From positions 35,357 to 99,356 of IMG/VR virus record IMGVR_UViG_3300005573_000071: DNA of 64,000 bases; one strand, written 5' to 3'. Positions 1 through 25,039 of the stretch are shown piece by piece. The position numbers and the translations under genes are program-made. Source of the stretch: a virus. A model generated the notes under the pieces. The model searched no databases. It saw only the letters and a program-made list of their open reading frames with translations, and was not told the DNA's origin. Each line of letters opens with the position of its first letter. Position 1 is the first letter of the stretch.

Positions 1-324
1 GTGATGGTAAAGGCGGTCAGCAAGTTAGTAGTGGTGATGAATTGCTTGATCTTCTGCGTAGCATGTTCAACGACTTCTCAGACACACGTAGCAATAGAAC
101 CAACTCCAGTAGTACTCCCATCAATACCAGAACGGCCGCAACTGAGTACCGATATTAATTGGTTCAAAGATTCCGAAGGCAATTATTGTGTGACAGCAGA
201 AGACGCACGCCGCTTATACCTAAACATTCGATTGTTAAGGAATTACGCAGACGACTTAAACGATTTTGCTATTGCGGTTACAAGCATTTGTGGAGTAGAG
301 AAAAATGGCGATTCCCACAAATAA
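1..324 (+). CDS. outer-membrane lipoprotein, o-spanin-like
   Basis: Hydrophobic N-terminus ending in lipobox-like FCVAC, Pro-rich linker (PTPVVLPSIPERP), then a helical domain with two Cys; start may be uncertain at the window edge. Confidence 0.55.
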   Translation: MMVKAVSKLVVVMNCLIFCVACSTTSQTHVAIEPTPVVLPSIPERPQLSTDINWFKDSEGNYCVTAEDARRLYLNIRLLRNYADDLNDFAIAVTSICGVEKNGDSHK

Positions 325-694
325 GATACGGGAGATCCAACGACTGATTGCTGTACTTCGTACGAAACGAATCTCAAAGAGTGAAGCTGTATATATTCTC
401 GATGAGTTGGAATACGCTTTTCGCTCAATTGCCGAACAAAGAGAAGTTAAGCCTACAACGAGTACTTTTCAGGAGCTTGCCGACCAACTTAACGGTCTTG
501 TTGAGTCTCTTGTTTCTTTATCCAAGCAACCCGAGAATGAATCTGTCGTCACCAATATTGCAACTCAAGCAATAGTATTACTTGGGAAAAATAAGATGTC
601 TCTTGTTGATACTACACGTGATAAACAATTGTTAGAGCAGTTGGAGAAAAGCGATAGAACGAAACGACTGTTGGCTAGATTCGCACGACGTTAA
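305..694 (+). CDS. hypothetical helical protein
   Basis: 129-aa ORF overlapping the previous gene; no recognised motif. Confidence 0.6.
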   Translation: MAIPTNKIREIQRLIAVLRTKRISKSEAVYILDELEYAFRSIAEQREVKPTTSTFQELADQLNGLVESLVSLSKQPENESVVTNIATQAIVLLGKNKMSLVDTTRDKQLLEQLEKSDRTKRLLARFARR

Positions 695-749
695 CATAAC
701 AAACTACTATATAAAATATTTTTGTATACTTCTAGATTAGGAGGGAGGC

Positions 750-3653
750 GTGATAATATTATCAAGTTGGGAAGTATCTTCGTCTGAAATTCTTTTGCGA
801 AAAGGTATCTTCCATCCTTTTGGTCTGTTCTCTGAGCAAATCTTCGGACCTAGAAAAGATTATAGATGTCAGTGCGGCAAGTTACAAGGCTTAGATTACC
901 TTGGTAAGAGGTGTGATGAGTGTAACGTACTTGTCGCACCTTCACTACTTCGTCGATATACGATGTCTCATATTCATCTGCCTTTCTCTATTATTCATCC
1001 TATGGCTATTATCTATCTGATGCCTCCCAGCAAGACTAATCTTTTACGGAATGTTGGAGACACTAAGACATATCAGATTTTGGAGGATTATATTCAATCA
1101 AATCCTTCTAAGTTTGCACAGTTCCAACGTTCGTTTCCGCTCTACTTAGATAAGATACCTGTATTGCCACCTACACTACGTCCTGTTACTTTTACAGCGA
1201 GCAATAGAATAAAGGATTTAGATCGCTTGAACACTTACTATCTCAATATTCTTAACATTCTAGAAAAGTATATTGTGACGGATGACGAAGCGGTTGTTAA
1301 TTTTACGAAACTCTCGATTCTGAAGGTTGCAGTTTCTTTGTATAAGTTGATTATACAGAAATTGACAAAGAAGGAAGGGTTGATACGTCAAAGTATACTT
1401 GGTAAGCGTAATGACTTCACAGGGCGTTCTGTTATAACTGTCGATCCTACTTTGACGGCAGATACTGCGAAGATTCCTTACAGAATACTAGTATCGTTAT
1501 TCCAGCTATATGTTGTGAATGAGTTAGCTCAAACTCGAGGAATGCTTACGGCTAGAGAAGCTGTAGATTCGTTTATACGAAATCCGCAGCTCTTATCTCT
1601 ATCTGTCCGGGAAGAGATCAAAGAGATTGTTGACCGATTGTGCGCACAACACTTTATTCTTCTGAATAGACAGCCTACCTTACATCTATCTTCGATACGT
1701 GCATTCCGTCCTATAGGTACAGATGCTGACGCGATAGGCATACCTATGATTGTTACTCCGGGCTATAATGCGGATTTTGATGGTGACACAATGGCTGTGT
1801 ACGCACCCCTTACAAAAGCAGCATTGATGGAAGCATCGTATATGACGTTTGATCAGTATCCGTACGCACCTGGCTCACGTAGATTCAACGCTGTCACACA
1901 AGATATCGTTGTGGGATTGTGGTACGTTACAAAAGATGTTGTAAGTTCAAATGGTACAAGTGTTGTTGAAGTTACGAATGATGTCGTGTTAGAGGAATTA
2001 CATCCGCATACATCTGTCTTTTGGAGAGGCAAAACAACGACTGCGGGAAGAGCATATATAGAGAGTTTATTGGATATTCCTATTAGTAAGCAACTATCGA
2101 AGTCTGCAATTTCGGAGTTACTTACAAATTGGATTGCGAAAGCATCGTCTGACACAATTGTGCCTACACTATATAAACTACAACGATACGCATTGAAGTA
2201 TGCCGCGTGTGTCACTATCTCGATTGACGATCTGATCGAAGGAGATCTTACTTGGAAGCGTAAGTATGAACATGTTTCAAAGTGGTCTATACCTACAGTT
2301 AAAGCATTTAGTAGTGATGCGAAACACGCAGTAGAAACGTTATCACTGAGTGAGAATATCGCTCCATTGTTACAATCGGGTGCTAGAGGTAAGCTGTCAC
2401 AGTGGTCACAAGTTGTTGCGCTTAGAGGCCTTGTAAGAAATAGTTTAGGTAAGTTGATCTTGCCACCCATACTATCTTCTCTTGTTGAGGGTTATACGCC
2501 TTCTGAGATGATACGGTCTGCTGCAGGAAATAGAAAGGGCGCTGTCGATAAAGCATTAAATACTGCTGTATCAGGTTATCTAGCACGTAAACTAGTGTTC
2601 TCTCTACAACATCTTATGCTTGGAGATACAGACGATTGTGGTACGAATATCTATCTTCCTTTCTTAGTAACTCCTCAGAATTACAAATCAATTATTGGGC
2701 GATATTTAGATGACGGAACTTATGTTACATATGAGAACGTCTCTTCGCTCATAGATCAAGAAGTAAGATTAAGATCTCCTATTGGGTGTAAGTCTGTTGA
2801 TTTCTGCAAGAAGTGTTATCCGTATGATTGGGGGAGATCTAAGTTTGTAGGTATAATTAGTGCACAATGTATTTCCGAGGTTGCTACACAGTTAGTAATG
2901 CGTACGTTCCATTTAGGAGGTGCAGCTACAGATACTAAGTTTATGAGTCTACCCGCGTGTGTTGATATTACAGATGACGATATTGTTGTAACAAACCAAC
3001 CCGTAAGGATTGAGTTGCCTTCCAGTGTTCCTGTTGATCCTGCGGGATACGTGATCGAAGAGTTTGACGTCAAGCTACATACAGATACGGACATCTCTGT
3101 GATAACGATTTCGGAAGGCACACGATGGCTGCTAGACACAGACAAAGATATGTTACCTCCTCAAACTCCTCTCTTTGTTATCTCTGTTAAGACAACAGAT
3201 CTAGCTACCGATCTTTCACACGTATCTAGACTTCTCAATAGCACATATATGACTACACTAGGTGACGCTCTGAACCAACTTACGAAGTTAGAAGAGACGT
3301 ATGCTAGATATCAGCAGCTCTTATCTATTCATTTTGAAGTTTTGTGGAGTGAACGGTTGCGGGATGTAACTAGAACGGATCAAGCCCTACGCTTCTCTCT
3401 TACGGATTTTGCTGTAGACAAACAGGTAAGACTAGAGAGCGTAGCAAATCTACCACACCAACGTTTGTTATTGAGTTTGTGTTTTGAGAACTTTAGAAAA
3501 TTCTTTACTTGTATGTTATCGTCGCAAGGTGGGAGTAAGATTTCTCCGCTGGAATATCTAATTCAGTCGAATCTAAGAGGACTTCAAGAGGATTTTGGGG
3601 CAGATGTAGTTGAAGAAAGTAAAGTAAGTATGTCACGAGAGGCAAGTGTATGA
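750..3653 (+). CDS. rpoC: phage multisubunit DNA-directed RNA polymerase beta' subunit
   Basis: GLFSEQIFGP-CQC..CDEC Zn site, IPVLPP, LGKRNDFTGRSVI, LLNRQPTLH, catalytic NADFDGD, bridge helix RKGAVDKALNTAVSGYLARKL, trigger loop TQLVMRTFHLGG; GGAGG RBS. Confidence 0.97.
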   Translation: MIILSSWEVSSSEILLRKGIFHPFGLFSEQIFGPRKDYRCQCGKLQGLDYLGKRCDECNVLVAPSLLRRYTMSHIHLPFSIIHPMAIIYLMPPSKTNLLRNVGDTKTYQILEDYIQSNPSKFAQFQRSFPLYLDKIPVLPPTLRPVTFTASNRIKDLDRLNTYYLNILNILEKYIVTDDEAVVNFTKLSILKVAVSLYKLIIQKLTKKEGLIRQSILGKRNDFTGRSVITVDPTLTADTAKIPYRILVSLFQLYVVNELAQTRGMLTAREAVDSFIRNPQLLSLSVREEIKEIVDRLCAQHFILLNRQPTLHLSSIRAFRPIGTDADAIGIPMIVTPGYNADFDGDTMAVYAPLTKAALMEASYMTFDQYPYAPGSRRFNAVTQDIVVGLWYVTKDVVSSNGTSVVEVTNDVVLEELHPHTSVFWRGKTTTAGRAYIESLLDIPISKQLSKSAISELLTNWIAKASSDTIVPTLYKLQRYALKYAACVTISIDDLIEGDLTWKRKYEHVSKWSIPTVKAFSSDAKHAVETLSLSENIAPLLQSGARGKLSQWSQVVALRGLVRNSLGKLILPPILSSLVEGYTPSEMIRSAAGNRKGAVDKALNTAVSGYLARKLVFSLQHLMLGDTDDCGTNIYLPFLVTPQNYKSIIGRYLDDGTYVTYENVSSLIDQEVRLRSPIGCKSVDFCKKCYPYDWGRSKFVGIISAQCISEVATQLVMRTFHLGGAATDTKFMSLPACVDITDDDIVVTNQPVRIELPSSVPVDPAGYVIEEFDVKLHTDTDISVITISEGTRWLLDTDKDMLPPQTPLFVISVKTTDLATDLSHVSRLLNSTYMTTLGDALNQLTKLEETYARYQQLLSIHFEVLWSERLRDVTRTDQALRFSLTDFAVDKQVRLESVANLPHQRLLLSLCFENFRKFFTCMLSSQGGSKISPLEYLIQSNLRGLQEDFGADVVEESKVSMSREASV

Positions 3654-4837
3654 ATGTATTAGAATGGCGAAAAGATGAAGTATCGGTTTGTTTAAGCTCT
3701 TTCTTACCACGTATTCTGGAGTGGTTTGCAGATAGTTGTAAGGATAAGTTGAAGACGTGGAAGTTGCGTCCAATTTCTGTACAGCATTCTACATACGGAT
3801 TTCATTTTACTAATGTAGTACTTGTTGTGTGCGAAACTGAGAACTCTCAACAATTCTCGTTTAAGTTACCTATACCTAATGAGGATGATGTTTTCATTGT
3901 TAATGATATAGCATGGATATTAGTGAATGAGTTAACCGATCAGTTAGTATCCTATCGTTATATTCCTGAGGATAAATTGTTGATCAGATGGCAGGGTTCA
4001 TTGTTTGCGGTTGTCGGAGATGAAAATGGTATACTGAGGATTAAAGACGAGAAAGTTCCTTTTTGGGTTCTACTCTACAATATCTTTACGAAAGATGAGC
4101 TCATTCAGAACGGACTGTATTTTGAGTTTGTGGATACTGAAAAGGTTGATTCGAAGTTCGCACGTTCTTTAGTATCTCAACCAAATTTGAGTGTGAAGTT
4201 GCCTACCCGCTACGAGTTTCTTACACCAATTCAACAGTTAGTGGTAAACTCGATGGTTCGGACACCTATTAAAGCGAAAGCGAAACTAAAGCAAGTTCCT
4301 AAACTGAATACAGACGTAGTTGAGTTTATTGAGCGGGAGTTGTTGGATCCTATTACGAGAGAGATTTACAATGTACGGACTGTGAAAGATCTACTTTATT
4401 TTACTATAAATGTGACGGAAGGAAAGCCGAAGACGACATTAACAGGTAGTAACTTGTACTTCAAGCGTGTAAGATCTTATGAGACGATAATGATAGCTCT
4501 TTATGAGAAATTGAGGGAGAACCAACAACAGCAGAAATATCAAAAGAAAGTCAAGATTGCTTCCGACTTTCTTTTGAAACGGCTCTTCACTTCACCTCAA
4601 CTTCAACGTCTCTTTGAGTACTTTGACCAAACGAATATGTTTAAGGAGATATCTCTACGATATAAGGTTGTTGTTCCTCTTGAGTACATTCCATACGATA
4701 TGCGAGATGTACACTATACTATGAGTAGTAACGTTTGTGTATATGATACTCCTGACGATGAGGGAATTGGTGCTAAGTTACAGTTTGCTGTTGATTGTGA
4801 GTTACAGCGTAATGGTATTTTTGTATTGAAGAATTAG
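3650..4837 (+). CDS. rpoB: RNA polymerase beta subunit, N-terminal part
   Basis: C-terminal FDQTNMFKEIS...MRDVHYT..NVCVYDTPDDEGIG matches bacterial beta FMDQTNPL..VRDVHPTH..CPIETPEGPNIG; overlaps the beta' stop (ATGA). Confidence 0.85.
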   Translation: MNVLEWRKDEVSVCLSSFLPRILEWFADSCKDKLKTWKLRPISVQHSTYGFHFTNVVLVVCETENSQQFSFKLPIPNEDDVFIVNDIAWILVNELTDQLVSYRYIPEDKLLIRWQGSLFAVVGDENGILRIKDEKVPFWVLLYNIFTKDELIQNGLYFEFVDTEKVDSKFARSLVSQPNLSVKLPTRYEFLTPIQQLVVNSMVRTPIKAKAKLKQVPKLNTDVVEFIERELLDPITREIYNVRTVKDLLYFTINVTEGKPKTTLTGSNLYFKRVRSYETIMIALYEKLRENQQQQKYQKKVKIASDFLLKRLFTSPQLQRLFEYFDQTNMFKEISLRYKVVVPLEYIPYDMRDVHYTMSSNVCVYDTPDDEGIGAKLQFAVDCELQRNGIFVLKN

Positions 4838-4851
4838 AGGGAGGTGAAGGT

Positions 4852-6615
4852 GTGATAATGAAGTCGGTATTGAGTAGCGCGTTAAGTTGTGTGCCGTTTT
4901 GTGCGCATGATGATGGTAATAGACTACAGATGGCAGCTAACTTCTTACGACAGAGCTTAGTTTTAGTGAATCCGCAACTTCCATACATAAGTACGTCTTA
5001 TTTACAAGAAGTTACAAAACTTACTACTTTTCTGAAGCAGGCAGCTGAAGATATACAGATCTTATATCGTAATGAAGAAATTGTTGTGTATAAATCATTG
5101 ACCACAGGTAAAGTCTATTTATATAGGATACCGTCCTCACTTTGGTCTGTATCTGTACAAGACACTGTTAAGGAAGGAGAGGTATTTGCACAACACACTG
5201 CCGTAAAGTTTGGTAGATATTGTGCTGGAGCGAACCTGAAAGTTGTATTCGCTCCTTACGAAGGTTGGAACTATGAAGACGCTATTGTTGTGAGCGAAAG
5301 TGGTGCTCAGAAACTAACAAGTCAGTATGTTAAGTCTTTCGAGTTGATATTAGAACCTAACGAAGTTCTTATGAAGTATCCTATAGTTGGAAGATTCTAT
5401 AAGAAAGGTGAGATACTATTCGAGTGGACGAGTGCTCCTAAGAATCCGATCAATGTTCTTTGCACCTCTGTAGATAAACGAAGAATTTTCGCGGATGCAG
5501 ACTTAGTTATCGAGCGGGTGTCTACGTATTATAAAAGTGAGAAGTATTTGGATTTGCATAAATCATCTCCGACAGTTCTTAAGTGGATAAAAGAGCATAA
5601 CAAGCCGAAAGCTGTCAAGACTTTGTTATCGTCTATCGATCCATCAATTGCTAAAGTTACTCCATTATACTTTCCTGAGAGCTACGAGTTAGTAGGCAAT
5701 CAAGACGCAATAGTTATAGTGGCACAAGCAAAAATAGTTCGTTCATTTTGTGTAGGGGATAAACTAGGTAATAGACACGGTAATAAGGGAGTTTGCTCTA
5801 TAATTGTACCAGATCGTTATGTAACAAGTAAAGATGGTTGGGTTCCAGATCTAGTTCTAAATCCATTAGGCGTTATCTCTCGTATGAATATTGGACAGAT
5901 CTTCGAGATGCATCTAGGAGAGGTATGTAGAGTTGTAGAAGAAAGAGTACGAGAGTTAGTAGAGTTTGAGAAATACGACGAAGCATTCAAGCTCTTACAG
6001 TCAATCGAGAAGATCACAAAAGGGACAATTCCATATCTACACTTGAAACTATCTGTGAAGGAACGATTGGCTCTACTACTTGAATTTGGTTTCACATTAG
6101 AGTTACCACTATACACACGTTCACCAAAAGAGATGATACGAAAATGTATGAAGCTGCTTGGAGTATCTCCTACTAAAGTATGGCGAATGGGTGCACTTGA
6201 GAGAGATTTTGGTTATGGTACTATGTATTTCATGTCGTTGGTACATACAGTGGAGTCAAAGTTTAGTACTCGTGCAGACGGACCGTATCATATTAAGACA
6301 TTACAGCCGTGTGATGACGAGTGTCATAGTTCTGGCCAACGATTAGGAGAAATGGAGATTTGGAACTTACTTGCATACGGAGCTATACATAATGTTGTCG
6401 AAACATTAGGATTCAAAGCGGATGATATAATTGCAAAAGAGAATATGATTTCACACTGTTTGAAAGTAGGTGAGCCACCCGTAGCTCCCGACTCGGTCTA
6501 TACAAACCACTCTTTATATTTGTATCTATACGCTCTTGGCGTAAACGTAGGAGGAGTATCCGTTTTATCTGATACGGATGTTGCACAGAAATGTCTTGAG
6601 TGGGGAGATTTGTAG
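4852..6615 (+). CDS. rpoB: RNA polymerase beta subunit, C-terminal part
   Basis: VPFCAHDDGNRLQMAANFLRQ, GWNYEDAIVVSE, GDKLGNRHGNKGV, NPLGVISRMNIGQ, GQRLGEMEIWNLLAYGA; own RBS. Confidence 0.96.
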   Translation: MIMKSVLSSALSCVPFCAHDDGNRLQMAANFLRQSLVLVNPQLPYISTSYLQEVTKLTTFLKQAAEDIQILYRNEEIVVYKSLTTGKVYLYRIPSSLWSVSVQDTVKEGEVFAQHTAVKFGRYCAGANLKVVFAPYEGWNYEDAIVVSESGAQKLTSQYVKSFELILEPNEVLMKYPIVGRFYKKGEILFEWTSAPKNPINVLCTSVDKRRIFADADLVIERVSTYYKSEKYLDLHKSSPTVLKWIKEHNKPKAVKTLLSSIDPSIAKVTPLYFPESYELVGNQDAIVIVAQAKIVRSFCVGDKLGNRHGNKGVCSIIVPDRYVTSKDGWVPDLVLNPLGVISRMNIGQIFEMHLGEVCRVVEERVRELVEFEKYDEAFKLLQSIEKITKGTIPYLHLKLSVKERLALLLEFGFTLELPLYTRSPKEMIRKCMKLLGVSPTKVWRMGALERDFGYGTMYFMSLVHTVESKFSTRADGPYHIKTLQPCDDECHSSGQRLGEMEIWNLLAYGAIHNVVETLGFKADDIIAKENMISHCLKVGEPPVAPDSVYTNHSLYLYLYALGVNVGGVSVLSDTDVAQKCLEWGDL

Positions 6616-6617
6616 CA

Positions 6618-7727
6618 ATGGCTTCCGGATTTGAGATAACCGGATATACAAAGAACGGCAATCCTATTTTGCTTACAAACAGAGTTATGAGTCTGATGAT
6701 CTTGAAGTCATCTGACTTAATCTCTCCTACTTTTGTGTTTACTTTTAAGCTTGATGACGATTTGCAGATTTCTCGAGACTTCTTTATGCTCAAAGAGATA
6801 GAGATTTTTTGGACGATTCCAAAGAGTCTCTCTTTTGCAGAGAAAGATGAGTTCGTAACTGCAAAGTTATATGTTGCGGACGTCTCATCTCAATCTGTAG
6901 GGATGCTTACAAGTACGGATACAGATACTAAACGTAGTGATGAAAGTACTCCTAGATATCTAGATGCAAATGTTACTTGTTATTTGCAAGACTCGTTAAT
7001 AGCGAAAGAGAGTATATCTTTGTTTAGTGAGCAAGTTAGTACGGAGAAATTGCTACGAGATATTGTGAAACGACCAAAGTATATCTCTCCTCCCGTAGTG
7101 CCTACGCTGAAGAATGTTTTCATCCCTAGTGTAGATAGATTACAAGCACTTTCGTATGTCGTATGTACATATGGTGTTTACGATACACCTGTTTTTGCGT
7201 CTTACGATATAGACGGCTTTTATCTGTATTCTTTGAAGGATACAGCACCTCCTAAACTTAAATTAGCGTATTTACCAAATCCTAACACTTCTAGAATTCC
7301 TCAAGATAGTATTATTGTGCAGTATGCGCAAGCATCTTACTCTGCAGCATCTCGCTCGTTTTATGCTCCTGCGTTTATACCTACCGTTGATTATGCGCAT
7401 AACGTTCTCTATGCAACAAAAGATCTAAGGTATCAACAACAACATTTACACGATTCGTTGATTGGATCAAGAGAGTTCGGTTCATCCTCCAACCTAAAGC
7501 ATCTCTATGACGAACTATTTCTAGAAGGATGTACATTAGTCACACGAACAGAATTTATGATAGATCCTCGAGTGTTAGTGTTGGGCACGAAAGTTGAGTT
7601 CTTTACGGACGAGACACGATTTGTACATCTACAAGGTACTTATACATTGACAACTGTTACTTATTCTTTATTATTATCTGGACGGCCTAGAGCTAGAGTA
7701 GAGATGAAGTTAAATAGACAGGAGTAG
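6618..7727 (+). CDS. putative baseplate hub protein (gp27/late-control-D like)
   Basis: About 370 aa, beta-rich, C-terminal LQGTYTLTTVTY..RVEMKL pattern typical of hub proteins; virion-gene context; start taken at ATG 6618. Confidence 0.45.
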   Translation: MASGFEITGYTKNGNPILLTNRVMSLMILKSSDLISPTFVFTFKLDDDLQISRDFFMLKEIEIFWTIPKSLSFAEKDEFVTAKLYVADVSSQSVGMLTSTDTDTKRSDESTPRYLDANVTCYLQDSLIAKESISLFSEQVSTEKLLRDIVKRPKYISPPVVPTLKNVFIPSVDRLQALSYVVCTYGVYDTPVFASYDIDGFYLYSLKDTAPPKLKLAYLPNPNTSRIPQDSIIVQYAQASYSAASRSFYAPAFIPTVDYAHNVLYATKDLRYQQQHLHDSLIGSREFGSSSNLKHLYDELFLEGCTLVTRTEFMIDPRVLVLGTKVEFFTDETRFVHLQGTYTLTTVTYSLLLSGRPRARVEMKLNRQE

Positions 7728-7733
7728 TAGTAG

Positions 7734-9374
7734 ATGCAAATTAAGAATGAGTATATCGTCGAATATCTAAAGTGCAAGAATGATCCCGTATACTTCATAA
7801 CACATTATTGCCGGGATTACACTTTGCCCGATAAACCTATTATCTCGAATTTGTATCCCAAACAACTAGAGATACTAGAAAAGTTTCTCAAAGATCATCG
7901 TGTTATACTATTGGGCTCTAGACAGGTAGGTAAGACAGTTTTGATTGTGTTTTTATGTTGTTGGTTATTATTATTCTTTCCTAATTATACAATAGCTGTT
8001 CTGTCTAGAAAGCAAGAGCATACGAATACGCTTGTTAAAGAGATTAGACTTGCTTTGGAAGCTCTACGTCCACCTTTTACTATTGATTTTAGTAATAAGG
8101 AACACGTTGTAAAGAAGATTGAGTCGTATATTGAACTTGCTAACGGTTCGAATGTAATTGCTATCTCAGTTCCAAAAGAGAATCCTGAAGAGGCTGGTAG
8201 AGGATTGAGAGCAGGCTTTATCTTTATAGACGAAGCTGCACATATCGTAAACTTAAAGAGAATCTTATCTGGTTTAACATATACTACAAATCGAATGTTT
8301 CTTAGGTACGAGCAAACCTCAGTACCGTACGGAATTGTAATCGGTAGCACGCCAAATAGAATGACGGGTGTAGGAGAAGTCTTCTTCCGAATGTGGCTAG
8401 AAGCTTCGAACGGTACTTCGAATTACGTACCCGTACGATTTCATTGGAAGGATGTTCCAGATTACAACGACGATTGGTACAAAGCAGTTACAAAAGATAA
8501 AGATCCTAGGGAAGTTGCTCAAGAATTGGATCTTATCTTCTTAGGCGATGAGTCGAGTTTCTTTCCAGATGATATTTTGATCAAACTGCAGCAAATTGAA
8601 GCCGTTGATCCTGCAGAAGAAGTTCTCGTTGATGGCTTTCCTATTATTTTGTATGAACCTCGATCGACTATAAACCGCGATGAGATTTATGTAGTTGGTG
8701 TTGATACCGCAACACGTACTGGAGACTCAAAGAGTGCTATTTATGTTATCAGATATTCAGACAAACAAATTGTTGCCGAGTTTGTGCATAAATGTTCGAC
8801 TACTACGTTGTGTAGAGCCGTAGAGAGACTTGCGCAGATATATAGAAGGTGTGCGATAATTGTAGAGTCAAATGGTGTCGGAAATCAAGTTGTGGAGTAT
8901 TGTTTAGAACACGAGTTTCTAAAACAACGTTTATTCTATACAAAGATCCGAAAAGGGAAGAAGGTAGAGACTCATTATGGTTGGGTCAACTCTACTAATG
9001 TAAGAGATCAGGTATTGAGTTGCATATATTCTTATGTATCAGATAACGTAGATACTCTCAGATCTTCTGTCTTAAGCCGTCAGCTAATGACTTTACGAAA
9101 TCGTGGGGGAAAGATTGTGGGTTCTCCAGATGATGCCGTTTTTGCGTTGGGAATGACTCTTTGGGCAACAAAGTATGCATCCGATACAATATTACGTTTA
9201 GTTGGCGATGAAAGTAAGATAACTACACCATTAGGTGGTGTAGAAGAACTATTTGCATATAGATATAGTAAAGGTGAAGATGAGATGATTACTACTACGA
9301 AAGACGAACGTCCGAGTGTAGATTTACTTGATGCTTTCTTTGAGAGTTTCACAGGAAGTAGGGAGATCCCATAA
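7734..9374 (+). CDS. terL: terminase large subunit (T4 gp17-like)
   Basis: EYLKCKNDPVYFI start, Walker A SRQVGKT, Walker B FIFIDEAA, STPN, nuclease VGVDTA and DDAVFA. Confidence 0.95.
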   Translation: MQIKNEYIVEYLKCKNDPVYFITHYCRDYTLPDKPIISNLYPKQLEILEKFLKDHRVILLGSRQVGKTVLIVFLCCWLLLFFPNYTIAVLSRKQEHTNTLVKEIRLALEALRPPFTIDFSNKEHVVKKIESYIELANGSNVIAISVPKENPEEAGRGLRAGFIFIDEAAHIVNLKRILSGLTYTTNRMFLRYEQTSVPYGIVIGSTPNRMTGVGEVFFRMWLEASNGTSNYVPVRFHWKDVPDYNDDWYKAVTKDKDPREVAQELDLIFLGDESSFFPDDILIKLQQIEAVDPAEEVLVDGFPIILYEPRSTINRDEIYVVGVDTATRTGDSKSAIYVIRYSDKQIVAEFVHKCSTTTLCRAVERLAQIYRRCAIIVESNGVGNQVVEYCLEHEFLKQRLFYTKIRKGKKVETHYGWVNSTNVRDQVLSCIYSYVSDNVDTLRSSVLSRQLMTLRNRGGKIVGSPDDAVFALGMTLWATKYASDTILRLVGDESKITTPLGGVEELFAYRYSKGEDEMITTTKDERPSVDLLDAFFESFTGSREIP

Positions 9375-17719: not shown

Positions 17720-18694
17720 ATGTACAGTATACTTTTGTTGGAACAGCCAGTATCATCACAAGACAGAAGAGCTGCAGTAGAGACAAGAGCTGTTATTCGA
17801 TTTATTGACGATATAGGAAAGATGGTATCTAGGCAAGCTCTTAGTAAAGGTATAGTACACGTTGTTGGATCTGGCGTCACAAAAACAGGCGTAGCTACAG
17901 GAGGAATGATGGCTGCAACAGGCGCCTTCTTTAGATCAGTTCTTGGATCGCTGCGAAGAGAGTTAGTAGGTAAACAAGTGAAGTTTTTTAATGGTTATAT
18001 GACATTGAGTTCGAATATAGCGAGTAAGATACGTGCGGAGGTCAGAGAACAAGCTGATGACGAATACGGTGAGTATTCTTCTGAACCTACTCCAGGAGGA
18101 CAAAGTTGGTTGCGTCGTATATGGCGATTTATACTCAAGTTTGGATTATATTACGTTCTAGTATTCGTTATTGGTTTGGCTATTTTCATAGCTTTGCCTC
18201 TTCTGGGTTTAGGAGATCTAGCTAAAAAAATAGTAAATAAAGCTAGACGTTTTGCGGGTTGGCTAGCGGGGATAGAGAAAGAGAAGGTAGATAAACTGCA
18301 GAAAGAAGACATAGATAAGATAGGATCTAAATTAGCTCGTGGATTAATAAAGGCTCTTGCTACGTTAGAAACGTTTATGAACGATCTTATGGAGAAGTGG
18401 AAAGAGAAGTTGGAAGAGCTTAAGACAAATAACGCTTACAAGGAAGCGGGATTTCTAAAAGCTCTCTGGTTAACGGCAAATGCATATTTTGGAGTGGTTG
18501 CTGATAGACTTTCGACGGTTAAAGATGAGAAAGCTAAAACAGTTGGTTACCTCTTAGTCGCTCCTTTCATATTTCTAGCGATGTTGTTGAGAAAAGTACT
18601 ACCGTTAGGTATTATCAAGAAGCTTTTTGGGAGTGAGAAAGGGCAAGAAGGAACGTTAGAGAAAGAGCAAAAGCAAAACGAAACTAAGATATAG
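17720..18694 (+). CDS. hypothetical membrane-associated protein, possible virion internal/ejection protein
   Basis: Two hydrophobic segments, N-terminal LLE motif, located right after the capsid gene. Confidence 0.6.
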   Translation: MYSILLLEQPVSSQDRRAAVETRAVIRFIDDIGKMVSRQALSKGIVHVVGSGVTKTGVATGGMMAATGAFFRSVLGSLRRELVGKQVKFFNGYMTLSSNIASKIRAEVREQADDEYGEYSSEPTPGGQSWLRRIWRFILKFGLYYVLVFVIGLAIFIALPLLGLGDLAKKIVNKARRFAGWLAGIEKEKVDKLQKEDIDKIGSKLARGLIKALATLETFMNDLMEKWKEKLEELKTNNAYKEAGFLKALWLTANAYFGVVADRLSTVKDEKAKTVGYLLVAPFIFLAMLLRKVLPLGIIKKLFGSEKGQEGTLEKEQKQNETKI

Positions 18695-18728
18695 AGTCTT
18701 CTCGAATTAAGAAGTAGTCGTAAGTACG

Positions 18729-18768
18729 AGTTACAGTGATCTTAAGATAAGGATCACTGTAACTTTTT
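18729..18768 (+). terminator. intrinsic terminator ending the structural block
   Basis: Perfect 13-bp inverted repeat AGTTACAGTGATC/GATCACTGTAACT followed by TTTT. Confidence 0.85.
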
Positions 18769-19261
18769 GTGTCGTTTGTAGATTGGGTTTGAGCGATATA
18801 TATTTTAATATAAGAAGTAGAGTCTACCTATTCCGTCTCGGGTAGGTAGACTTAGAAAGGAGGTGTGTGTGATAGAATCAACGAAATCGGTTGTAACAAA
18901 AGAGAAGAAGATAAAACAACTCGCCCGCAAAAAGCGGGCTTTAATAAGAGAAGCTTTTTGCGTCGGCTTCCGTATAAAATTTAATAGGAGGGGTAAAATG
19001 GAGAGTTTCTAGACTGTGTCTTGTTATGCGGGCTATGTCTGCTAGCTCAGTTCCGCTTCGGTCGAGTTAGGAAGACAGCAACCGAAAAGCCCAATTTTTA
19101 CAACTAAGAGGCGAACAGCGGTAGAAATCAATTTACTAAAAGAGATCGAGATCCCTGTGCTAACTGATATTTTAGAGATTGCTCCGCTTACGAAAACAAT
19201 AGAAAAATTTATTATCAAGAAAGTCGTTAGTAGTTCAAAAAAAAACAAAAAGGAGGACAAT

Positions 19262-19493
19262 ATGTACGCATTTTTTAATAAGTGAAGAAGACGGTTACCA
19301 AGTTATTCGAGTGGTTAAACTGAAAGACGTAGAGATAGAAATAGAAGAAGACGGAGATTACGATGGTTACTACGACGAAGAAAGTATCGAGGATAAAATA
19401 GAAGAGGAAATAGGTATTTTCTATGCCGATGGGACTATTGACAGTAAATATCCTGTTTATGTAGACAAGTTTCTCGTGGAACGGGATGAGTAA
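19262..19493 (+). pseudogene. small acidic ORF frameshifted in a T6 run (or sequencing error)
   Basis: AAGGAGG RBS and ATG at 19262; removing one T from 19271-19276 joins MYAFLISEED... in frame to ORF 19311-19493. Confidence 0.6.
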
Positions 19494-19519
19494 TTACCAA
19501 CTTTACATAGGAGTGAATA

Positions 19520-21091
19520 ATGATAGACATCAATCTATTAAAAGAGATCGAGATTGAACTTCGATCTCAAAGTACGTTATCACGGGCTACGTGGGAAAAG
19601 CTTTCCGATTTGACAGATTGGGAGCTACGAATAGTTCAAGATTTTATGTTACGCGTAGAGCTCGCGAAACAGCATAACGATCTCAACTTCGTATACCGTA
19701 GATACGACATCGAACAGCCTCGTAGACGAGATATACCACCTAAAGATCTTCTTATAGTTACGCTCAAACGAAATGAGAAGGACACCGCTCTAACAGACGC
19801 CACTAATCGTCTTGTAGTTCCTACACATCTTAAATTTGACACACTCACTATATGGGGTATGTCGGTGACTGCTGGCAGAAACTTTGCTATAGAACACGCG
19901 TTGATTCACAATTTCGATCACGTACTCTTTATAGACGACGATATTATTGCTCCTAATACTGCTTTAATACAACTCTGGGATTTGATGTACAATATAGATT
20001 TACCTCCAGAGGTTCTTAAGTGCACGAACGGTAGACCATTAGTAGTAGCTGCTAACTACTACAGAAAATGCGAACCACTAGTAAGTGCGCATGTCTACGA
20101 ACAAGTGAGTGAGACACTAGGAGTATGCACTTCTGTCTGTGCTATGGGCTTCACACTCATTAACGTTAACGAGATCGCACGTTCCGTACCTCTACCATTA
20201 TTTTGGGAGTTTGGTGCTCCCGATGGTTATTGGACAATGGGCGAAGACGCATTCTTCACGAAAAATCTGATAGAGCGCATTCATACTTATCCCATCGTAG
20301 ACCTCTCGACTGAATGTCTCCACTACGATAAGCAGTGGAAAAGAGTCTTTGGTCGTAGAGATCCCAATATTACGTATGCTACTGGAATGATACTCGACTT
20401 CGAGACTATTCGTGTACCTCCCGCATATCCGCTAATTCTTATTGGTATACCTACACGTACGTCTACATCTCCGATAGCTGTAAACTTAGCGAAGATGGAG
20501 TTGCTACGTGGATACAGAACTGACGTAGTTAGAGTTAGTAATTATCCGGTGGATGAAGCACGCAATATACTTGCCCGAAAAGCGTTAGAAATGGGAGCTG
20601 AATATCTCTTATTCATCGACGACGATATTATTCCACCTACGGAAGGTCTCAATAATCTGATTCGGCATATTGAACAAGATAAGTCGATAGGAATGGTAGT
20701 CGGAGAATATACTACGAAAGGAGCAGACCCTTGGAGTGCTCATTTGATTCTACATCCTGAGACAGGTATCGTTACAGAGGTAGATCGCGTGTATACTTCT
20801 GGTGTTGTAGAGTGTAATTGGCTTACAGGACTTGGATTTGCACTTATTCGTACAGAAGTATTCAGACAGCTTACATATCCGTGGTTCAAATGTATTACTC
20901 ATCGCGGAGACAAAGAATTGAACGAGGATGCCTGGTTCTGTGAGAAGCTGCTCCACAACGGATATAGAATTCTGATAGATATGGATGCACCTTGTCTTCA
21001 TGTAAATTGGAATACAGGACAAGTGTTTTATCCACGAAATATGAACGAAGTATCTGGTATATGGGCTACGAATATTACCTATAAAGACTGA
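19520..21091 (+). CDS. glycosyltransferase with two tandem GT2/GT-A domains
   Basis: Two copies of (G/A)RN...LFIDDDII.P...G(F/L)GF.LI...(G/N)EDA(F/W)F...C.H. Confidence 0.85.
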   Translation: MIDINLLKEIEIELRSQSTLSRATWEKLSDLTDWELRIVQDFMLRVELAKQHNDLNFVYRRYDIEQPRRRDIPPKDLLIVTLKRNEKDTALTDATNRLVVPTHLKFDTLTIWGMSVTAGRNFAIEHALIHNFDHVLFIDDDIIAPNTALIQLWDLMYNIDLPPEVLKCTNGRPLVVAANYYRKCEPLVSAHVYEQVSETLGVCTSVCAMGFTLINVNEIARSVPLPLFWEFGAPDGYWTMGEDAFFTKNLIERIHTYPIVDLSTECLHYDKQWKRVFGRRDPNITYATGMILDFETIRVPPAYPLILIGIPTRTSTSPIAVNLAKMELLRGYRTDVVRVSNYPVDEARNILARKALEMGAEYLLFIDDDIIPPTEGLNNLIRHIEQDKSIGMVVGEYTTKGADPWSAHLILHPETGIVTEVDRVYTSGVVECNWLTGLGFALIRTEVFRQLTYPWFKCITHRGDKELNEDAWFCEKLLHNGYRILIDMDAPCLHVNWNTGQVFYPRNMNEVSGIWATNITYKD

Positions 21092-21106
21092 AAAGGAGAT
21101 GATATA

Positions 21107-21553
21107 ATGTACGCTTTCTTAGTAGACGAAGGAGATATAAAAGAGGATACAATGAACACTCCAGAAAAAAACTTATTGCAGGAGACGTTAAAAGAATTAA
21201 AAAAATATCATAGAACGGAGAAGGATGTCTTGTGGGTAGGAAGCGAAAGTTTCGGATGGTTCACGTGGAAAGACTTCGAAGAGCTAGCTGATACAGAATA
21301 CAATTCGGGGCATGGAACTCAAGAAGTTGCATGTGATCTATTGATTGTTGGCAGAGACTTTTGGTTGGAGAGAAAAGACTACGACGGCGCAGAATGTTGG
21401 ACGTTTAAAACTATGCCGAGCAGACCTGAAAATTACAGGAAGCCTGTTGTTTTGACGGTAACGCAAGCTAGAAAGAAGTTCAGAAAAGATATAAGGGGTT
21501 GGGCAACTTTAACGGAATTACATGATACAGAGATATGGGAAGACATTAAATAA
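21107..21553 (+). CDS. conserved phage hypothetical protein
   Basis: DVLWVG..YNSGHGTQEVACDLLIVG.DFWLER..YDGAECW pattern, recalled from other phage genomes; true start may be 21152. Confidence 0.7.
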   Translation: MYAFLVDEGDIKEDTMNTPEKNLLQETLKELKKYHRTEKDVLWVGSESFGWFTWKDFEELADTEYNSGHGTQEVACDLLIVGRDFWLERKDYDGAECWTFKTMPSRPENYRKPVVLTVTQARKKFRKDIRGWATLTELHDTEIWEDIK

Positions 21554-21609
21554 TACTCCCTGAATTGAGGGAGAACTATAGAAAGTAATAAACTAGAGAG
21601 GATGTAAAA

Positions 21610-21948
21610 ATGAAAAAAGAGGAGGAGAAGAAGTACTTAATTGATCAAGTTTATGCGTTAATGGCAGTGATAGAAAAAGAGTTTTTACAGGAAGAAACAA
21701 ATAAGGAAGAATCGGATGAATTTGTTGATATCTTTAAGGAGATTTGTAAAAGTGGAATACCTTTTAGCTTTAGTATGACACCAAGTCGGCTGGTTACGGT
21801 ATATTTATACGATAAAGACCGGAATAAAATATGGGATGGAAGTGGACTATTGAATGATTATAATGAGTTAATACGAAAGTTTATTGAGGCCATTCTGGAG
21901 TTTTATCCCGACAGTGAGTTTGCAATGAGGTTAAACAACCAAAAGTAG
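21610..21948 (+). CDS. hypothetical protein (AT-rich insert)
   Basis: 112-aa ORF with RBS. Confidence 0.6.
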   Translation: MKKEEEKKYLIDQVYALMAVIEKEFLQEETNKEESDEFVDIFKEICKSGIPFSFSMTPSRLVTVYLYDKDRNKIWDGSGLLNDYNELIRKFIEAILEFYPDSEFAMRLNNQK

Positions 21949-22015
21949 TTTAATTGTTTGTTTGGAGGAGAGGAATAGAAAATGAAAAGATGTGCAGAAA
22001 AGGGGGTAGATTGAT

Positions 22016-22321
22016 ATGTTAGCACTATGGGCAGTTACAGCTAGATTAAATACAGATCCTCAAATCAGCGTACCAAAGGATCTAAGAAGTTGGGCGTTAT
22101 CTCAAGTAGCTATAGCAACTTCGGATTGTCCCGGAGTCTTTAAAGTAGACGAGAACGGTATCTACTTCGTTGGGATCAAAGACAACGACTTCAGAAACTG
22201 TTTCGGTTGGTTACCGTTGAGTATGTCGTATGCCGATCCTTATCAAGCGATTCCTCAAGGAGACACTAAATGGTTCATACATCTTCTGACTACAAAAGGT
22301 TTCAAGGACGTATCGAGATAG
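22016..22321 (+). CDS. hypothetical protein
   Basis: 101-aa ORF with upstream G-rich RBS. Confidence 0.6.
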   Translation: MLALWAVTARLNTDPQISVPKDLRSWALSQVAIATSDCPGVFKVDENGIYFVGIKDNDFRNCFGWLPLSMSYADPYQAIPQGDTKWFIHLLTTKGFKDVSR

Positions 22322-22850
22322 TAAGGGGGACAGATGCGCAAAAAAATTAAGGAGGTCAAAAAGACGGAAGAAATGAAAAAAGACAATAATGTTAATGTTT
22401 CTGAAGAACTTTCTAAAAAATTCCGGAATATGGGTATGGGCATACTATAACTATATAAAGGTAATTAAAGACGCGATTAAAGATATAGAAAGTAAGAATA
22501 ATTATCAAAAATAGGAGGAGGAATTTCAATGAAAGAGATGGTAGATCCTGCAGTTATTCAAGAATTAGTAGTGTACGATCCCGATGTCGTAGATATGTCT
22601 TCTAAAGAACTCTGTCAACTTGTCGAAGCGTTGTACTCCACGGGGAAGCTCAACGAGACAGAGTATGAACGATATCAGATTCTAATAAGTGGGGGACTAT
22701 GAAAATGAAAAAGAAACACAAAATAAAGTTAGGACCTGACGTAGTATTGAGTATGAGACGCGGTAGGATATTTGTAGACAAGAAGAAGCAACACGATCGT
22801 ATATGGTGTAGATGTAAAGACCGAAAAAGCTTATACGGAGTGAAGAATCT

Positions 22851-23921
22851 ATGAAACCATACACGGTTCTGTTTGTCGATACTGGTCTTCGGTTGGAACC
22901 GAAGGTCTATCAAGTTAAACCAATTGGTGGTAGTGAGCTCTCGTTGCTACTATTAGCTGAAGGATTATGCGCACTAGGACACAGAACGATTATTCTGCAA
23001 CCAGAGCAACGTTACTATTGTAATGATCAATTCATAATAGATGATCTACGTAAACTGACCGAATACATACCGACAGCAGATCTCTTAGTACTTAATCGTG
23101 CACATATTGATCTCACGTTGATTCCAACTACACTCCCAATCTTCTATTTCTCACACGATGCTTACGACCAACAGATTCTGGATTGGCTTTCGTTTCCTAA
23201 TGTCATATCTCGACTAACGAAAATAATATGTGTAAGCGAATGGCAAGCGTACACGTTCAGGTTATATAGGAATATTCCCGCTGAAAAGCTTACTGTAGTT
23301 CCGAATGCGTGCTTTAAAGCTGAATGGTGTTGGGGGCATGAGCGTTCACAGAAGAATAACATATTGACATACGCATCGATTCCGTTCAAAGGGTTGCATA
23401 TGTTGCCCGATCTATTTTTCGATATTTGTATGAATACAAAAAGAGACGACCTAGAGTTGTGGATATTTTCTAGTTACAAACTGTACGATCGAGAAGACGA
23501 TGCTAAGACACACGCCGTGTTGAGTCAACTACGAAGAATGAAAGGCGTAAAACTTTTTCCACTACTCCCACCATCTGAACTCATAAACATGTTTAAGAAG
23601 GCACACGTCTATGTTCATCCGCAAACATACCACGAAACTTTTGGGATGGTTATAGCACAAGCAATGGCTACAGGCATGATACCCGTAAGTACATCAAAAG
23701 GTGCTCTTCCAGAGCTTATCTCGCACAACGAAAATGGATTACTGACTACAGGGCCTAATATAGAAGAGTATGATACGTGGGCAGAATTTGTAGATCTTGT
23801 GGCTACTGCTCTCGAGCCTTCTTCATATAAACTTTCACTGAAAGCTCAACGAGTTGTAGAGAAGTTCGATTATGTAAGAGTGGCAAATCAGTTTCTCACA
23901 ACAATAGGAGGATATATATGA
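22851..23921 (+). CDS. glycosyltransferase, GT-B fold (GT4-like)
   Basis: IGGSE, CVSEWQ, ETFGMVIAQAMATG, GALPE. Confidence 0.9.
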   Translation: MKPYTVLFVDTGLRLEPKVYQVKPIGGSELSLLLLAEGLCALGHRTIILQPEQRYYCNDQFIIDDLRKLTEYIPTADLLVLNRAHIDLTLIPTTLPIFYFSHDAYDQQILDWLSFPNVISRLTKIICVSEWQAYTFRLYRNIPAEKLTVVPNACFKAEWCWGHERSQKNNILTYASIPFKGLHMLPDLFFDICMNTKRDDLELWIFSSYKLYDREDDAKTHAVLSQLRRMKGVKLFPLLPPSELINMFKKAHVYVHPQTYHETFGMVIAQAMATGMIPVSTSKGALPELISHNENGLLTTGPNIEEYDTWAEFVDLVATALEPSSYKLSLKAQRVVEKFDYVRVANQFLTTIGGYI

Positions 23922-25039
23922 TTAGCATCCGACGTCAGAAGATAATTTACCAATTAGAACACGAATACGCATGCGATAACACGTTCAGCGAATTCGGAGA
24001 GAGCTTCGACGTTGCGAAGAACATACTTGTAGTTGGAGCTCCTGCGTATCGTGAGAAAGGAAAGGATGTAAAAGGAAGCGTATTCGTTTACACGAATGGA
24101 ACACTAGATGAACAGATGTCAATGGTATCTACTTTCTCTGGTCTTGGTGCAGCTGTAGCGATCTCTCCAAATGGATATAGAATCGCAGCTCTAGCCCGAG
24201 AGAGGAATCGGTCTACAATCTTGATCTTTCGAAAGAAAGAGACTTGGACTCTAGAAGGTATCGTTCCTTTAGCAGGAGAGAACGTGTCTCGTTGTTCGTT
24301 GTTCTTCTCTTCAGATAGTACGCGTTTGCATGTTGTGCAGCCTGTTTACAAATACGATGAGGGGACTCGAAGTTGGATCGGTATGATACACGTATATCGA
24401 TTAGCGGGCACGAAGTGGAAAGCTGAAACTGAGATAACCGAAGAAGGAGTACCCGAGTTAGGTTGGTTCAGTTCTCGTTTAGATATGACGACACTATTAC
24501 TATCGAGTAGAGAAGGAGATAGGCTATACACGTATGATACGGATACAAAATCGCTTAAGTTGCTGCAGCAGTTAGAGAAGAAAGCGTGGCGCCATTACTT
24601 TCATGTCACCGATGATTGGTTAGCAGCGTCTTATCCTTTACAAATGAAGAGTACAACAAACGAGGTTGGCGAAGTACATCTCTACCGAAGAGAAGGGAGC
24701 AACTACATTCCGTATACTATACTTACAGATGCGAACATAGGTTTCGGATCTTGTGTGCATATACACAAAAACTATTTACTTGTCGGAGCGCCTAATTACC
24801 GCGCTCATGGCTTCCACGATTTAGGTGCTATTATTGTATATGACCTGTCACAGCCTCAAGTTACACCTCTCCAACTTGTTGTAGTTCCAAATTTAGGTAA
24901 AAGTGCGCTATTCGGTGCTTGGTTCAAACACTACAATAACACCCTCTTCGTAGCTACACCATTTGTACGTAATTGGTCTGGCTCAGTTCTCAAATTCAGA
25001 TGTATCGAGAACGTGAAGCGGACTGAGGCGCAAAAATAA
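23918..25039 (+). CDS. FG-GAP-repeat beta-propeller protein
   Basis: FGESF..LVVGAP..GSVFVY, LGAAVAI, FGSCV..LLVGAP..GAIIVY, FG..LFVATP. Confidence 0.8.
   Translation: MISIRRQKIIYQLEHEYACDNTFSEFGESFDVAKNILVVGAPAYREKGKDVKGSVFVYTNGTLDEQMSMVSTFSGLGAAVAISPNGYRIAALARERNRSTILIFRKKETWTLEGIVPLAGENVSRCSLFFSSDSTRLHVVQPVYKYDEGTRSWIGMIHVYRLAGTKWKAETEITEEGVPELGWFSSRLDMTTLLLSSREGDRLYTYDTDTKSLKLLQQLEKKAWRHYFHVTDDWLAASYPLQMKSTTNEVGEVHLYRREGSNYIPYTILTDANIGFGSCVHIHKNYLLVGAPNYRAHGFHDLGAIIVYDLSQPQVTPLQLVVVPNLGKSALFGAWFKHYNNTLFVATPFVRNWSGSVLKFRCIENVKRTEAQK

Follow-up and report, generated by a model that had tools for sequence, protein, structure and literature searches.

Phage multisubunit RNA polymerases function without alpha and sigma subunits. 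Gp23-capsid phages with unsplit beta and beta' subunits have been described as the multi-subunit RNAP-encoding Caudovirales, or mReC (Weinheimer & Aylward 2020, PMC7481178), in a text that says nothing of paired RNA polymerases, of the order of the genes, of a beta in two parts, or of packaging in the virion. The cultured Cobetia phage Carin-5 (PV155638), which has hypermodified DNA (PMC12686479), carries sigma, beta', and beta genes in that order. An earlier note on the DNA studied here had started from the premise that T4-like phages use the host RNA polymerase, which overlooks both the published mReC (PMC7481178) and Carin-5. That Gp23-capsid phages can encode beta and beta' is already known since 2020, and what is added here is the pairing of two polymerases in one phage and the splitting of one beta subunit.

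The window, a stretch of 64,000 nucleotides (positions 35,357 to 99,356 of IMG/VR record IMGVR_UViG_3300005573_000071), comes from an uncultured hot-spring jumbo myovirus with a Gp23-type capsid, a Gp20-type portal, a T4-type terminase, and a tail sheath, and the record itself (locus label G000) is 99 kb long, about 35% of the genome. In Pfam searches the major capsid protein (MCP) matched Gp23 (PF07068) with an E value of 1e-33, Terminase_6N was found in the large terminase TerL (E 1e-9; PF03237), and Portal_T4 and Peptidase_S77 were found as well, making up a head and packaging set of T4 type; the tail sheath gene lies at L006:4649-7174. Identity to named T4-like phages is just about 25%. 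The phage also encodes Gat-QueC, suggesting that its DNA is probably modified with 7-deazaguanine. It shares with the mReC the source among uncultured tailed phages of metagenomes and IMG/VR, the capsid (PF07068) and terminase (PF03237) families, beta and beta' chains of full length with the NADxDGD motif, and an RNA polymerase branch apart from cellular enzymes, and a beta and a NADxDGD-bearing beta', each of at least 800 aa, stand on one contig. The phage fits the published description of the mReC lineage, a link made via that description and not via the list of 97 original mReC contigs; the taxon numbers of two IMG/VR relatives are absent from the supplements of Weinheimer & Aylward 2020. 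Unlike in the published mReC description, there are two paralogous pairs here, and one beta is split.

This phage owns two multisubunit RNA polymerases, and positions 750 to 6615 of the window encode, on the plus strand, the catalytic core of the compact enzyme (set 2), which consists of three polypeptides. An unsplit beta' of 967 aa (750 to 3653; Pfam Rpb1 domains 1, 2, 4, and 5) is followed by betaN, the N-terminal half of beta as a polypeptide of its own (3650 to 4837, 395 aa; Rpb2 fork domain at residues 324-384), and by betaC, the catalytic C-terminal half (4852 to 6615, 587 aa; Pfam Rpb2 domains 6 and 7). Alignment to Salmonella RpoC bears out the claim that the motifs of beta' are intact, namely the N-terminal zinc ribbon, NADFDGD, the bridge helix, a second zinc site, and a trigger loop with its His, and alignment to Salmonella RpoB does the same for beta, with YDTPDDEG at the ETPEG position in addition to HDDGNR, GDKLGNRHGNKG, and GEMEIW in betaC. 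The reading of these motifs as bacterial-like rather than archaeal agrees with our searches, in which bacterial NCBIfam models scored above archaeal ones and the best PDB sequence matches were bacterial subunits (1e-76 and 1e-48, against 1e-21 for archaeal ones). Measured against the NCBIfam equivalog cut-offs, the scores amount to about one third or less: the rpoC model gave 340 bits on beta' (cut-off 963.5), and the rpoB model gave 226 bits on betaC (cut-off 896) and no match on betaN. Orthologs of this beta' are 97%, 51%, and 41-43% identical to it. The order of beta' before beta, the reverse of the cellular genes, is as previously stated, and so is the lack of an alpha gene in the window; indeed, alpha and sigma domains (PF01000, PF04542, and PF04545) had no match at E <= 1 anywhere in the 99-kb record, which makes up about 35% of the genome, and genes for sigma, alpha, or other subunits could lie elsewhere. 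The earlier note's picture of a compact, phage-owned RNA polymerase core of bacterial type is supported, and of its phrase "a minimal phage RNAP" the compact core stands while the idea of a sole polymerase does not, as an unsplit second pair lies 5.8 kb upstream, outside the window.

The split of beta is confirmed as genuine. At the junction (plus strand, 4835 to 4860) the TAG stop of betaN (4835-4837) is followed by a ribosome-binding site, GGAGGTGA, at 4840-4847 and by a new start, GTG at 4852 or ATG at 4858, and the sequence can be read directly to show that betaN and betaC lie in different reading frames. An assembly artefact is excluded by contigs of the independent DNA runs X3 and X4, which have no indel at the junction. 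The layout is identical in a 97% relative (L008), and six diverged lineages all have the split at one and the same residue; five more proteins that consist of betaC only, with identities of 42-51%, begin at that residue, and the betaN ortholog in L189 terminates at it. This recurrence, together with the stop, ribosome-binding site, and new start, places a real division at the boundary of the fork and external domains, where a short linker stands in place of the external-1 segment that bacteria have (E. coli residues 566 and 673 lie on either side of it). The sister lineage L009 has a fused beta of 976 aa, with whose residues 1-395 betaN is colinear, and in the beta tree this fused form nests as sister to the split form of the window (support 94), showing that a small clade acquired the split at its base and that one re-fusion followed. 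An AlphaFold2 model of betaN (pLDDT 82, pTM 0.83) accompanies these data, and the best PDB match of betaN, the closest to it in structure, is the stand-alone betaN chain of the AR9 nonvirion RNA polymerase (nvRNAP; 7S00_c, E 1e-11), with bacterial beta subunits next; betaC is 23% identical to AR9 nvRNAP betaC from residue 14 on (E 1e-24). The division of beta at the AR9 position can be demonstrated to be both young and reversible.

The second pair (set 1; G000 23504-30303) is unsplit and encodes a beta' of 975 aa, which is without the zinc ribbon, and a beta of 1291 aa, against a total of 982 aa in two pieces for the set 2 beta. As in set 2, its beta' is a single open reading frame (ORF) that includes the double-psi beta-barrel, bridge helix, and trigger loop, and a gene for an SNF2 helicase lies upstream. 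The two sets are 26-28% identical to each other. In the beta' tree both belong to a phage-only clade (59 rows) that is separated from long bacterial beta' sequences, such as those of Salmonella and Staphylococcus, with an SH-aLRT support of 99, set 2 in its clade A and set 1 in its clade C; phage beta subunits likewise stand apart from bacterial beta (support 100), and the set 1 beta clusters with large-type betas. These separate trees of beta and beta', which cover part of the phylogeny that had been proposed as a check, set the phage subunits apart from bacterial RpoB and RpoC and do not nest them among these. These trees were built under LG+G4 with short searches, and phiKZ subunits, too diverged and barely detected by Pfam, were left out; AR9 betaC sits on a long branch, and its position in the beta tree is unreliable. 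An AU test rejects set 1 and set 2 as a single clade (p 0.0007), and sequence comparison in this way shows the two pairs to be old paralogs rather than recent copies.

Both types recur in IMG/VR phage contigs, in which we found 66 compact and 43 large pairs, every one ordered beta' then beta, with at least 14 contigs carrying one of each. Compact-type beta' retains the zinc ribbon, which large-type beta' has lost, and large-type beta has an additional N-terminal region of about 380 aa. TerL lies 7-10 kb downstream of compact pairs in other loci, and the large pair of L140 and L142 comes immediately after the portal, protease, and MCP genes. The neighbors conserved beside main-group IMG/VR pairs (ThiF-like, FolE2, and unknowns) have no BLAST-level homologs in the 99-kb record.

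Around the compact pair, the genes are tightly spaced. The run from beta' onward has a 4-nt overlap of beta' and betaN, the 14-nt gap with the ribosome-binding site, and then gaps of 2 and 6 nt, and the earlier note was right that it continues into a hub-like gene and TerL, the former starting 2 nt after the beta stop (6615) with an ATG at 6618, the start used by the Atlas record and by 369-aa homologs. This 369-aa gene (6618 to 7727, plus strand) has no Pfam or PHROG match and is a candidate, possibly, for a baseplate hub, a lead that comes from Atlas feature and structure neighbors (GpP-like, Gp44-like, YqbQ, and Phage_GPD; scores 0.96-0.97, TM 0.65), with a poor AlphaFold2 model of its product (pLDDT 46); a homolog occupies the same place in L009 and L189. 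The T4-type large terminase that follows (7734 to 9374, plus strand; Pfam Terminase_6N) is about 25% identical to TerL of T4-like cyanophages and rhizobiophages. Directly upstream of beta', a 129-aa ORF (305 to 694, plus strand) is without Pfam or PHROG match; it is conserved in L008 and was not detected in L009, and a contig from an RNA library (625-1180) bridges its junction with beta'. The 291-aa ORF at 36017-36892 had no Pfam match at E <= 0.01.

Between 750 and 12980 the plus strand has no terminator-like site whose stem exceeds 9 pairs, with weaker ones of 5-9 pairs present, and the two RNA polymerase pairs, which lie on the same strand with nothing that is clearly a terminator in between, may share their timing. 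Sigma-70-like promoters are not enriched over shuffled sequence (37 versus 43.9 expected and 33 versus 50 expected), and intergenic k-mer enrichment is dominated by AGGAGG. As for a candidate phage promoter motif, 6 of 11 occurrences of GAACAAA are intergenic (p 3e-4 before correction, not significant after it), and this GAACA-type word is only loosely like the AR9 late motif AACA-N6-TA. Contigs from the RNA libraries, in which DNA may be present and which tell nothing of strand or level, cover the RNA polymerase genes and cross three gene junctions, with 3733-4214 uncovered by contigs of both RNA runs.

Our results lead us to propose, as the best explanation of the whole and on balance a probable one, a two-polymerase phage program in which the compact pair is made late and is the likelier virion enzyme while the large pair is nonvirion. 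Like phiKZ and AR9, the phage would run both polymerases with neither alpha nor sigma. Because the compact pair is coupled to the hub-like, terminase, and head genes, it may be made late, and the same gene context suggests that the compact enzyme could be packaged in the virion; it would be the better candidate for carriage in the particle to start the next infection, leaving the large pair as the nonvirion enzyme. The probable 7-deazaguanine modification of the DNA may make a self-encoded polymerase necessary.

The roles could be reversed, the large pair being carried in the virion and the compact split pair serving as a nonvirion polymerase of middle or late genes, which we consider unlikely. 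The compact beta is split as in the AR9 nonvirion enzyme, the N-terminal extra of about 380 aa in large-type beta could serve packaging or ejection, and the SNF2 helicase adjoins set 1, a predicted helicase being present in phiKZ virions (PMC13282480). The position of the large pair by the head genes in L140 and L142 also points away from the compact pair as virion enzyme. Against such a reversal, TerL is linked to the compact pair in this clade and at several other compact-pair loci. A scheme in which neither enzyme is packaged, host RNA polymerase reading the early genes and the phage enzymes taking over later as T7 RNA polymerase or N4 RNAPII do, appears improbable: it would accommodate the arrangement of both pairs in a single co-directional array in which no evident terminator separates them, and the sigma gene beside beta' in Carin-5 suggests that part of the group initiates by another logic, but sigma-70-like promoters are at or below the shuffle level, sigma was not found in the 99 kb, and known two-enzyme phage multisubunit systems all use one as virion enzyme (PMC7598289).

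Far less credible than either is a recent capture of host rpoC and rpoB or a bacterial misjoin, with the split as an assembly error or pseudogene. The best single-sequence matches are indeed bacterial subunits, at about 30% identity; however, the model scores fall far below the equivalog cut-offs, the phage subunits form a clade apart from the bacterial ones (support 99), and the gene order is the reverse of that in cells. TerL synteny in four independent contigs speaks against a misjoin, and the suspicion of a chimera at 6.6 kb is contradicted both by contigs of the two independent DNA runs, which bridge 600-7800, and by the order beta', beta, a 375-aa gene, and TerL in L008, L009, and L189. 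The same X3 and X4 contigs, with no indel at the split, and the conservation of the split residue in lineages just 42-51% identical leave no place for an assembly error or a pseudogene. Host capture, misjoin, and artefactual split are refuted by clade, synteny, contigs, and conserved split together.

Compared with phiKZ and AR9, this lineage is simpler, with its two adjacent gene pairs, its beta' chains left whole, and its compact subunits, and the occurrence of split and fused beta within one small clade serves as a natural experiment for asking if the split matters. Iyer et al. (PMC7824862) have argued that fragmented phage subunits are ancestral, and a young, reversible split at the AR9 position bears on that dispute. 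If two polymerases are general in mReC, the layout would extend well beyond the nucleus-forming jumbo phages. A broader reading, which we offer tentatively and regard as doubtful, is that a host-independent, phiKZ-like program runs throughout mReC and that the AR9 and phiKZ fragments derive from unsplit pairs. Were it true, one virion and one nonvirion polymerase would serve hypermodified DNA across mReC, fragmentation in AR9 and phiKZ would have come about by repeated cuts at few permissive linkers, and the hot-spring clade, with its cut at the AR9 site and one re-fused lineage, would show that process under way; split phage subunits would then be derived and not pre-LUCA relics.

Among known systems, the euryarchaeal B''/B' division had been named as a parallel, and this holds in that both splits follow the fork domain (Rpb2_3), with betaC matching the 599-position archaeal B model from model position 349. 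The window sequences, however, are of bacterial type, the external domains after the split are largely deleted here, and the window split is independent in origin from the euryarchaeal one; AR9 nvRNAP, cut in the same linker, is the more relevant parallel. Carin-5 shares adjacent, unsplit beta' (1083 aa) and beta (927 aa) genes in the same order, and its RNA polymerase branches with the phage clade in the beta' tree, but it has an annotated sigma gene directly upstream of beta', a genome of 154 kb, and, by Pfam, just one beta' and one beta gene; its sigma factor has no homolog among the 2869 ORFs of the loci searched. The phiKZ-like phages (Chimalliviridae) have in common with this phage two paralogous RNA polymerases, an independence of host sigma and alpha that is probable here, and an SNF2-type helicase near the RNA polymerase genes (PMC7824862), and differ in their own MCP type, in beta' and beta made of 4-5 polypeptides, and in the chimallin nucleus, in contrast to the Gp23-type capsid and unsplit beta' found here. 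AR9 differs in that its beta' is split too and its subunit genes are scattered, whereas here the beta' subunits are single chains, the genes of each pair are adjacent, and the set 1 beta is unsplit; sequence similarity to AR9 is 22-23%. In other respects AR9 and PBS1 come close: they are jumbo myoviruses with two multisubunit polymerases and no alpha or sigma found (PMC5312081, PMC7598289), as in the 99 kb searched here, no deposited phage ranks above them as a capsid match (26.7% identity over 67% of the MCP), the same linker, which runs from the fork to the HDD-GNR region, is where the AR9 beta is cut (PDB 7S00), and the DNA is noncanonical in both phages, with dU in AR9 and probably 7-deazaguanine here.

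The phage encodes two complete RNA polymerase catalytic cores. The compact one lies at 750-6615 of the window as three co-directional plus-strand ORFs, namely, β' (750-3653, 967 aa; Pfam Rpb1 domains 1, 2, 4, and 5), βN (3650-4837, 395 aa, with the Rpb2 fork domain at its end), and βC (4852-6615, 587 aa; Rpb2 domains 6 and 7). Alignment to Salmonella RpoC recovers an N-terminal zinc ribbon, NADFDGD, the bridge helix, a second zinc site with all four cysteines, and a trigger loop with its histidine, and alignment to Salmonella RpoB places YDTPDDEG at the ETPEG position and recovers HDDGNR, GDKLGNRHGNKG, and GEMEIW. NCBIfam bacterial models score above archaeal ones, at no more than about one-third of the equivalog cutoffs (rpoC, 340 versus 963.5 bits), and bacterial subunits are the best PDB sequence matches (1e-76 and 1e-48), followed by archaeal (1e-21) and AR9 (1e-16) subunits. 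Since motifs, domains, and bacterial-type scores agree, the earlier note was correct in all testable details of its observation, a compact β' with intact catalytic motifs and bacterial-like rather than archaeal subunits; its interpretation stands only in part.

The polymerase in the window is one of two, a second, large pair having been found outside it. The source record (99,356 bases, of which the window is bases 35357-99356; completeness estimate, ~35%) carries a second β' (record 23504-26431, 975 aa, GGDFDGD, without the zinc ribbon) and an unsplit β of 1,291 aa (record 26428-30303, equal to 8428-12303 of L007, which is record 18001-36500), with an SNF2-type helicase gene 3.9 kb upstream of the pair. 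The two sets share 28% and 26% identity. In a 70-row β' tree, the phage proteins form a single clade separate from bacterial β' (SH-aLRT 99), so the compact β' does not nest among cellular RpoC; within this clade, the compact β' falls in clade A, clade B is a large group of ~900-aa proteins, and the large β' falls in clade C among many ~1,000-aa proteins. An AU test, on a group named after the tree was seen, rejected the two sets as a single clade (p 0.0007), and by these sequence comparisons they are old paralogs.

Two scans of IMG/VR yielded 160 loci, and labeling of their ORFs revealed two recurrent gene pairs, both ordered β' to β: compact pairs (n = 66; β' of ~885 to 930 aa with the zinc ribbon, β of ~1,000 aa), the type of the window's set, and large pairs (n = 43; β' of ~1,000 aa without it, β of ~1,360 aa), the type of the second set. 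Because at least 14 contigs hold one pair of each, tens of kilobases apart, compact and large polymerases are a recurrent combination among these phages. The two-pair layout is also present in the related contigs L008, L009, and L188. In L188 (Ga0308409_1000279, a 96% relative), the large β (L188:369-4209) has lost 26 nt between short TTGAT repeats and is thereby broken into two ORFs (653 and 633 aa); the strain may be defective, this may be another type of split, or the assembly may be in error. Other IMG/VR loci (L054, L057, L060-L065, L069-L071, and others) hold single ORFs of ~2,000 to 2,400 aa that begin ~3.5 kb upstream and match β' in their C-terminal half, probably fused β-β' proteins of another viral group.

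The split of the compact β is genuine. As junction sequence and Pfam domains confirm, β is divided between the ETPEG-position motif and HDDGNR, with a start for each part: βN ends in TAG at 4835-4837, GGAGGTGA lies at 4840-4847, and βC starts at GTG 4852 or ATG 4858 in a different frame. Contigs from two independent DNA runs cross 600-7800 at ~95.6% identity with indels at 718 and 7723 only, leaving the junction free of indels and arguing against both an assembly artifact and a chimera at ~6.6 kb, two of the concerns attached to the original claim. The same layout is found in L008 (IMG/VR, 97% identical), five more βC-only proteins, at 42 to 51% identity, share the start residue exactly, and in L189, from another metagenome (β' 42% identical), βN ends at the matching residue and a separate 573-aa βC comes next. 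L189 also has an additional 142-aa ORF, unrelated to βN, between β' and βN (L189:3602-4030). Split β is confined to a small hot-spring clade within this phage group, in which one lineage from two sources (L009 and P0122) has a fused β of 974 to 976 aa, colinear with βN plus βC. In the β tree, the fused form is nested as sister to the window's split form (support 94), with the rest of the clade split; a basal split with one re-fusion takes two events, against at least four for independent splits.

By itself, βN matches no NCBIfam model, and BLAST finds no similarity between it and the large β or AR9 βN. A four-ortholog βN profile matches compact-type β over its first ~400 residues and large-type β over ~405 to 770. 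Large-type β (L007:8428-12303; IMG/VR) has ~380 to 400 additional N-terminal residues without counterpart in compact β. The AF2 model of βN is good (pLDDT 82, pTM 0.83; 38-row alignment), and its best PDB match is 7S00 chain c of the AR9 non-virion polymerase core (E 1e-11, TM 0.61/0.52), AR9's own stand-alone N-terminal β piece, with bacterial β subunits next. All the phage β proteins lack most of the segment equivalent to E. coli ~585 to 655; the compact β is cut in the short linker remaining there, and the cut in AR9 non-virion β falls in this linker too, within ~11 residues.

No α or σ domains were found in the 99-kb record (~35% of the genome), in line with the reported lack of an α subunit in the window, and σ70-like promoters do not exceed their frequency in shuffled sequence. 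L007 1-18500 (record 18001-36500) has 33 such matches, fewer than the 50.0 in shuffles (sd 6.9). The genes for β', βN, βC, a 369-aa protein, TerL, and an 899-aa protein are tightly packed (successively, a 4-nt overlap, a 14-nt gap with a ribosome-binding site, a 2-nt gap, a 6-nt gap, and a 1-nt overlap). The polymerase genes thus do run on as the earlier note described; by its Atlas neighbors only, the 369-aa product is a candidate hub-like protein. Plus-strand terminator-like sites of >9 stem pairs are absent before 12980, where weaker ones are present, and clear terminator-like hairpins lie at 12980, at 17628, immediately past the end of the capsid gene, and at 18728. Hot-spring RNA-library contigs cover genes of the polymerase region across three gene junctions, which is compatible with transcription but not proof of it.

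We propose that the compact enzyme would be made late alongside structural proteins, which would make it the better virion-polymerase candidate; it might then be carried in the virion as the early polymerase, and the large pair would be the non-virion enzyme, a division of labor like that of phiKZ and AR9. This assignment is tentative, and we judge it somewhat more likely to be wrong than right: the large pair comes after the head genes in contigs L140 and L142, one co-directional array contains both pairs, and a promoter motif search returned nothing significant.

Pfam identifies a Gp23 capsid, Gp20-type portal, prohead protease, T4-type TerL, and tail sheath, with only ~25% identity to named T4-like phages. 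Of the deposited phages, AR9/PBS1 give the highest-ranked capsid match, with 26.7% identity across 67% of its length. DNA matches come from hot-spring and microbial-mat metagenomes. A glutamine amidotransferase-QueC fusion (window 31442-32926; Pfam E 1e-38) suggests that the DNA is modified with 7-deazaguanine. FolE2 lies just downstream of the compact pair in the main IMG/VR group. AR9 DNA contains dU, and that of the cultured Cobetia phage Carin-5, whose genes run σ-β'-β with β' before β as here, contains hypermodified T (PMC12686479); phage-owned multisubunit polymerases and noncanonical DNA may go together. Also encoded are a 908-aa family A DNA polymerase that has a UDG-superfamily domain at its N terminus and also includes a 3'-5' exonuclease domain (window 36883-39609), an ATP-dependent DNA ligase (window 33802-35061), a LigD-type 3'-phosphoesterase (L007:15555-16097), and NrdD, an anaerobic ribonucleotide reductase that carries an ATP-cone (L006:11277-13391).

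Full-length β' of 1,127 to 1,192 aa with NADFDGD is present in MN988525 (Rhizobium phage RHph_Y65) and MW073017 (Vibrio phage Va2), and Pfam Rpb2_6 was not found anywhere in either genome; either β' stands alone there or β is too diverged for detection. Weinheimer and Aylward (2020) described multisubunit RNAP-encoding Caudovirales (mReC), 97 metagenomic contigs that combine PF07068 capsids and PF03237 terminases with full-length β and β' branching separately from cellular ones (PMC7481178); one further paper was found to use the name. Compared by description, our phage fits, and it is probably a member of this published but little-studied lineage. The text of that paper is silent on a second copy, on any split, and on virions and phiKZ, and in the published work found there are neither paired compact and large polymerases nor a clade-specific, AR9-like, once-reverted β split. 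Iyer et al. (2021) regarded Gp23-capsid jumbo phages as being without RNA polymerase and fragmented phiKZ-type subunits as possible pre-LUCA relics (PMC7824862); the recent origin and reversibility of the split in this clade speak for at least this β cut being derived.
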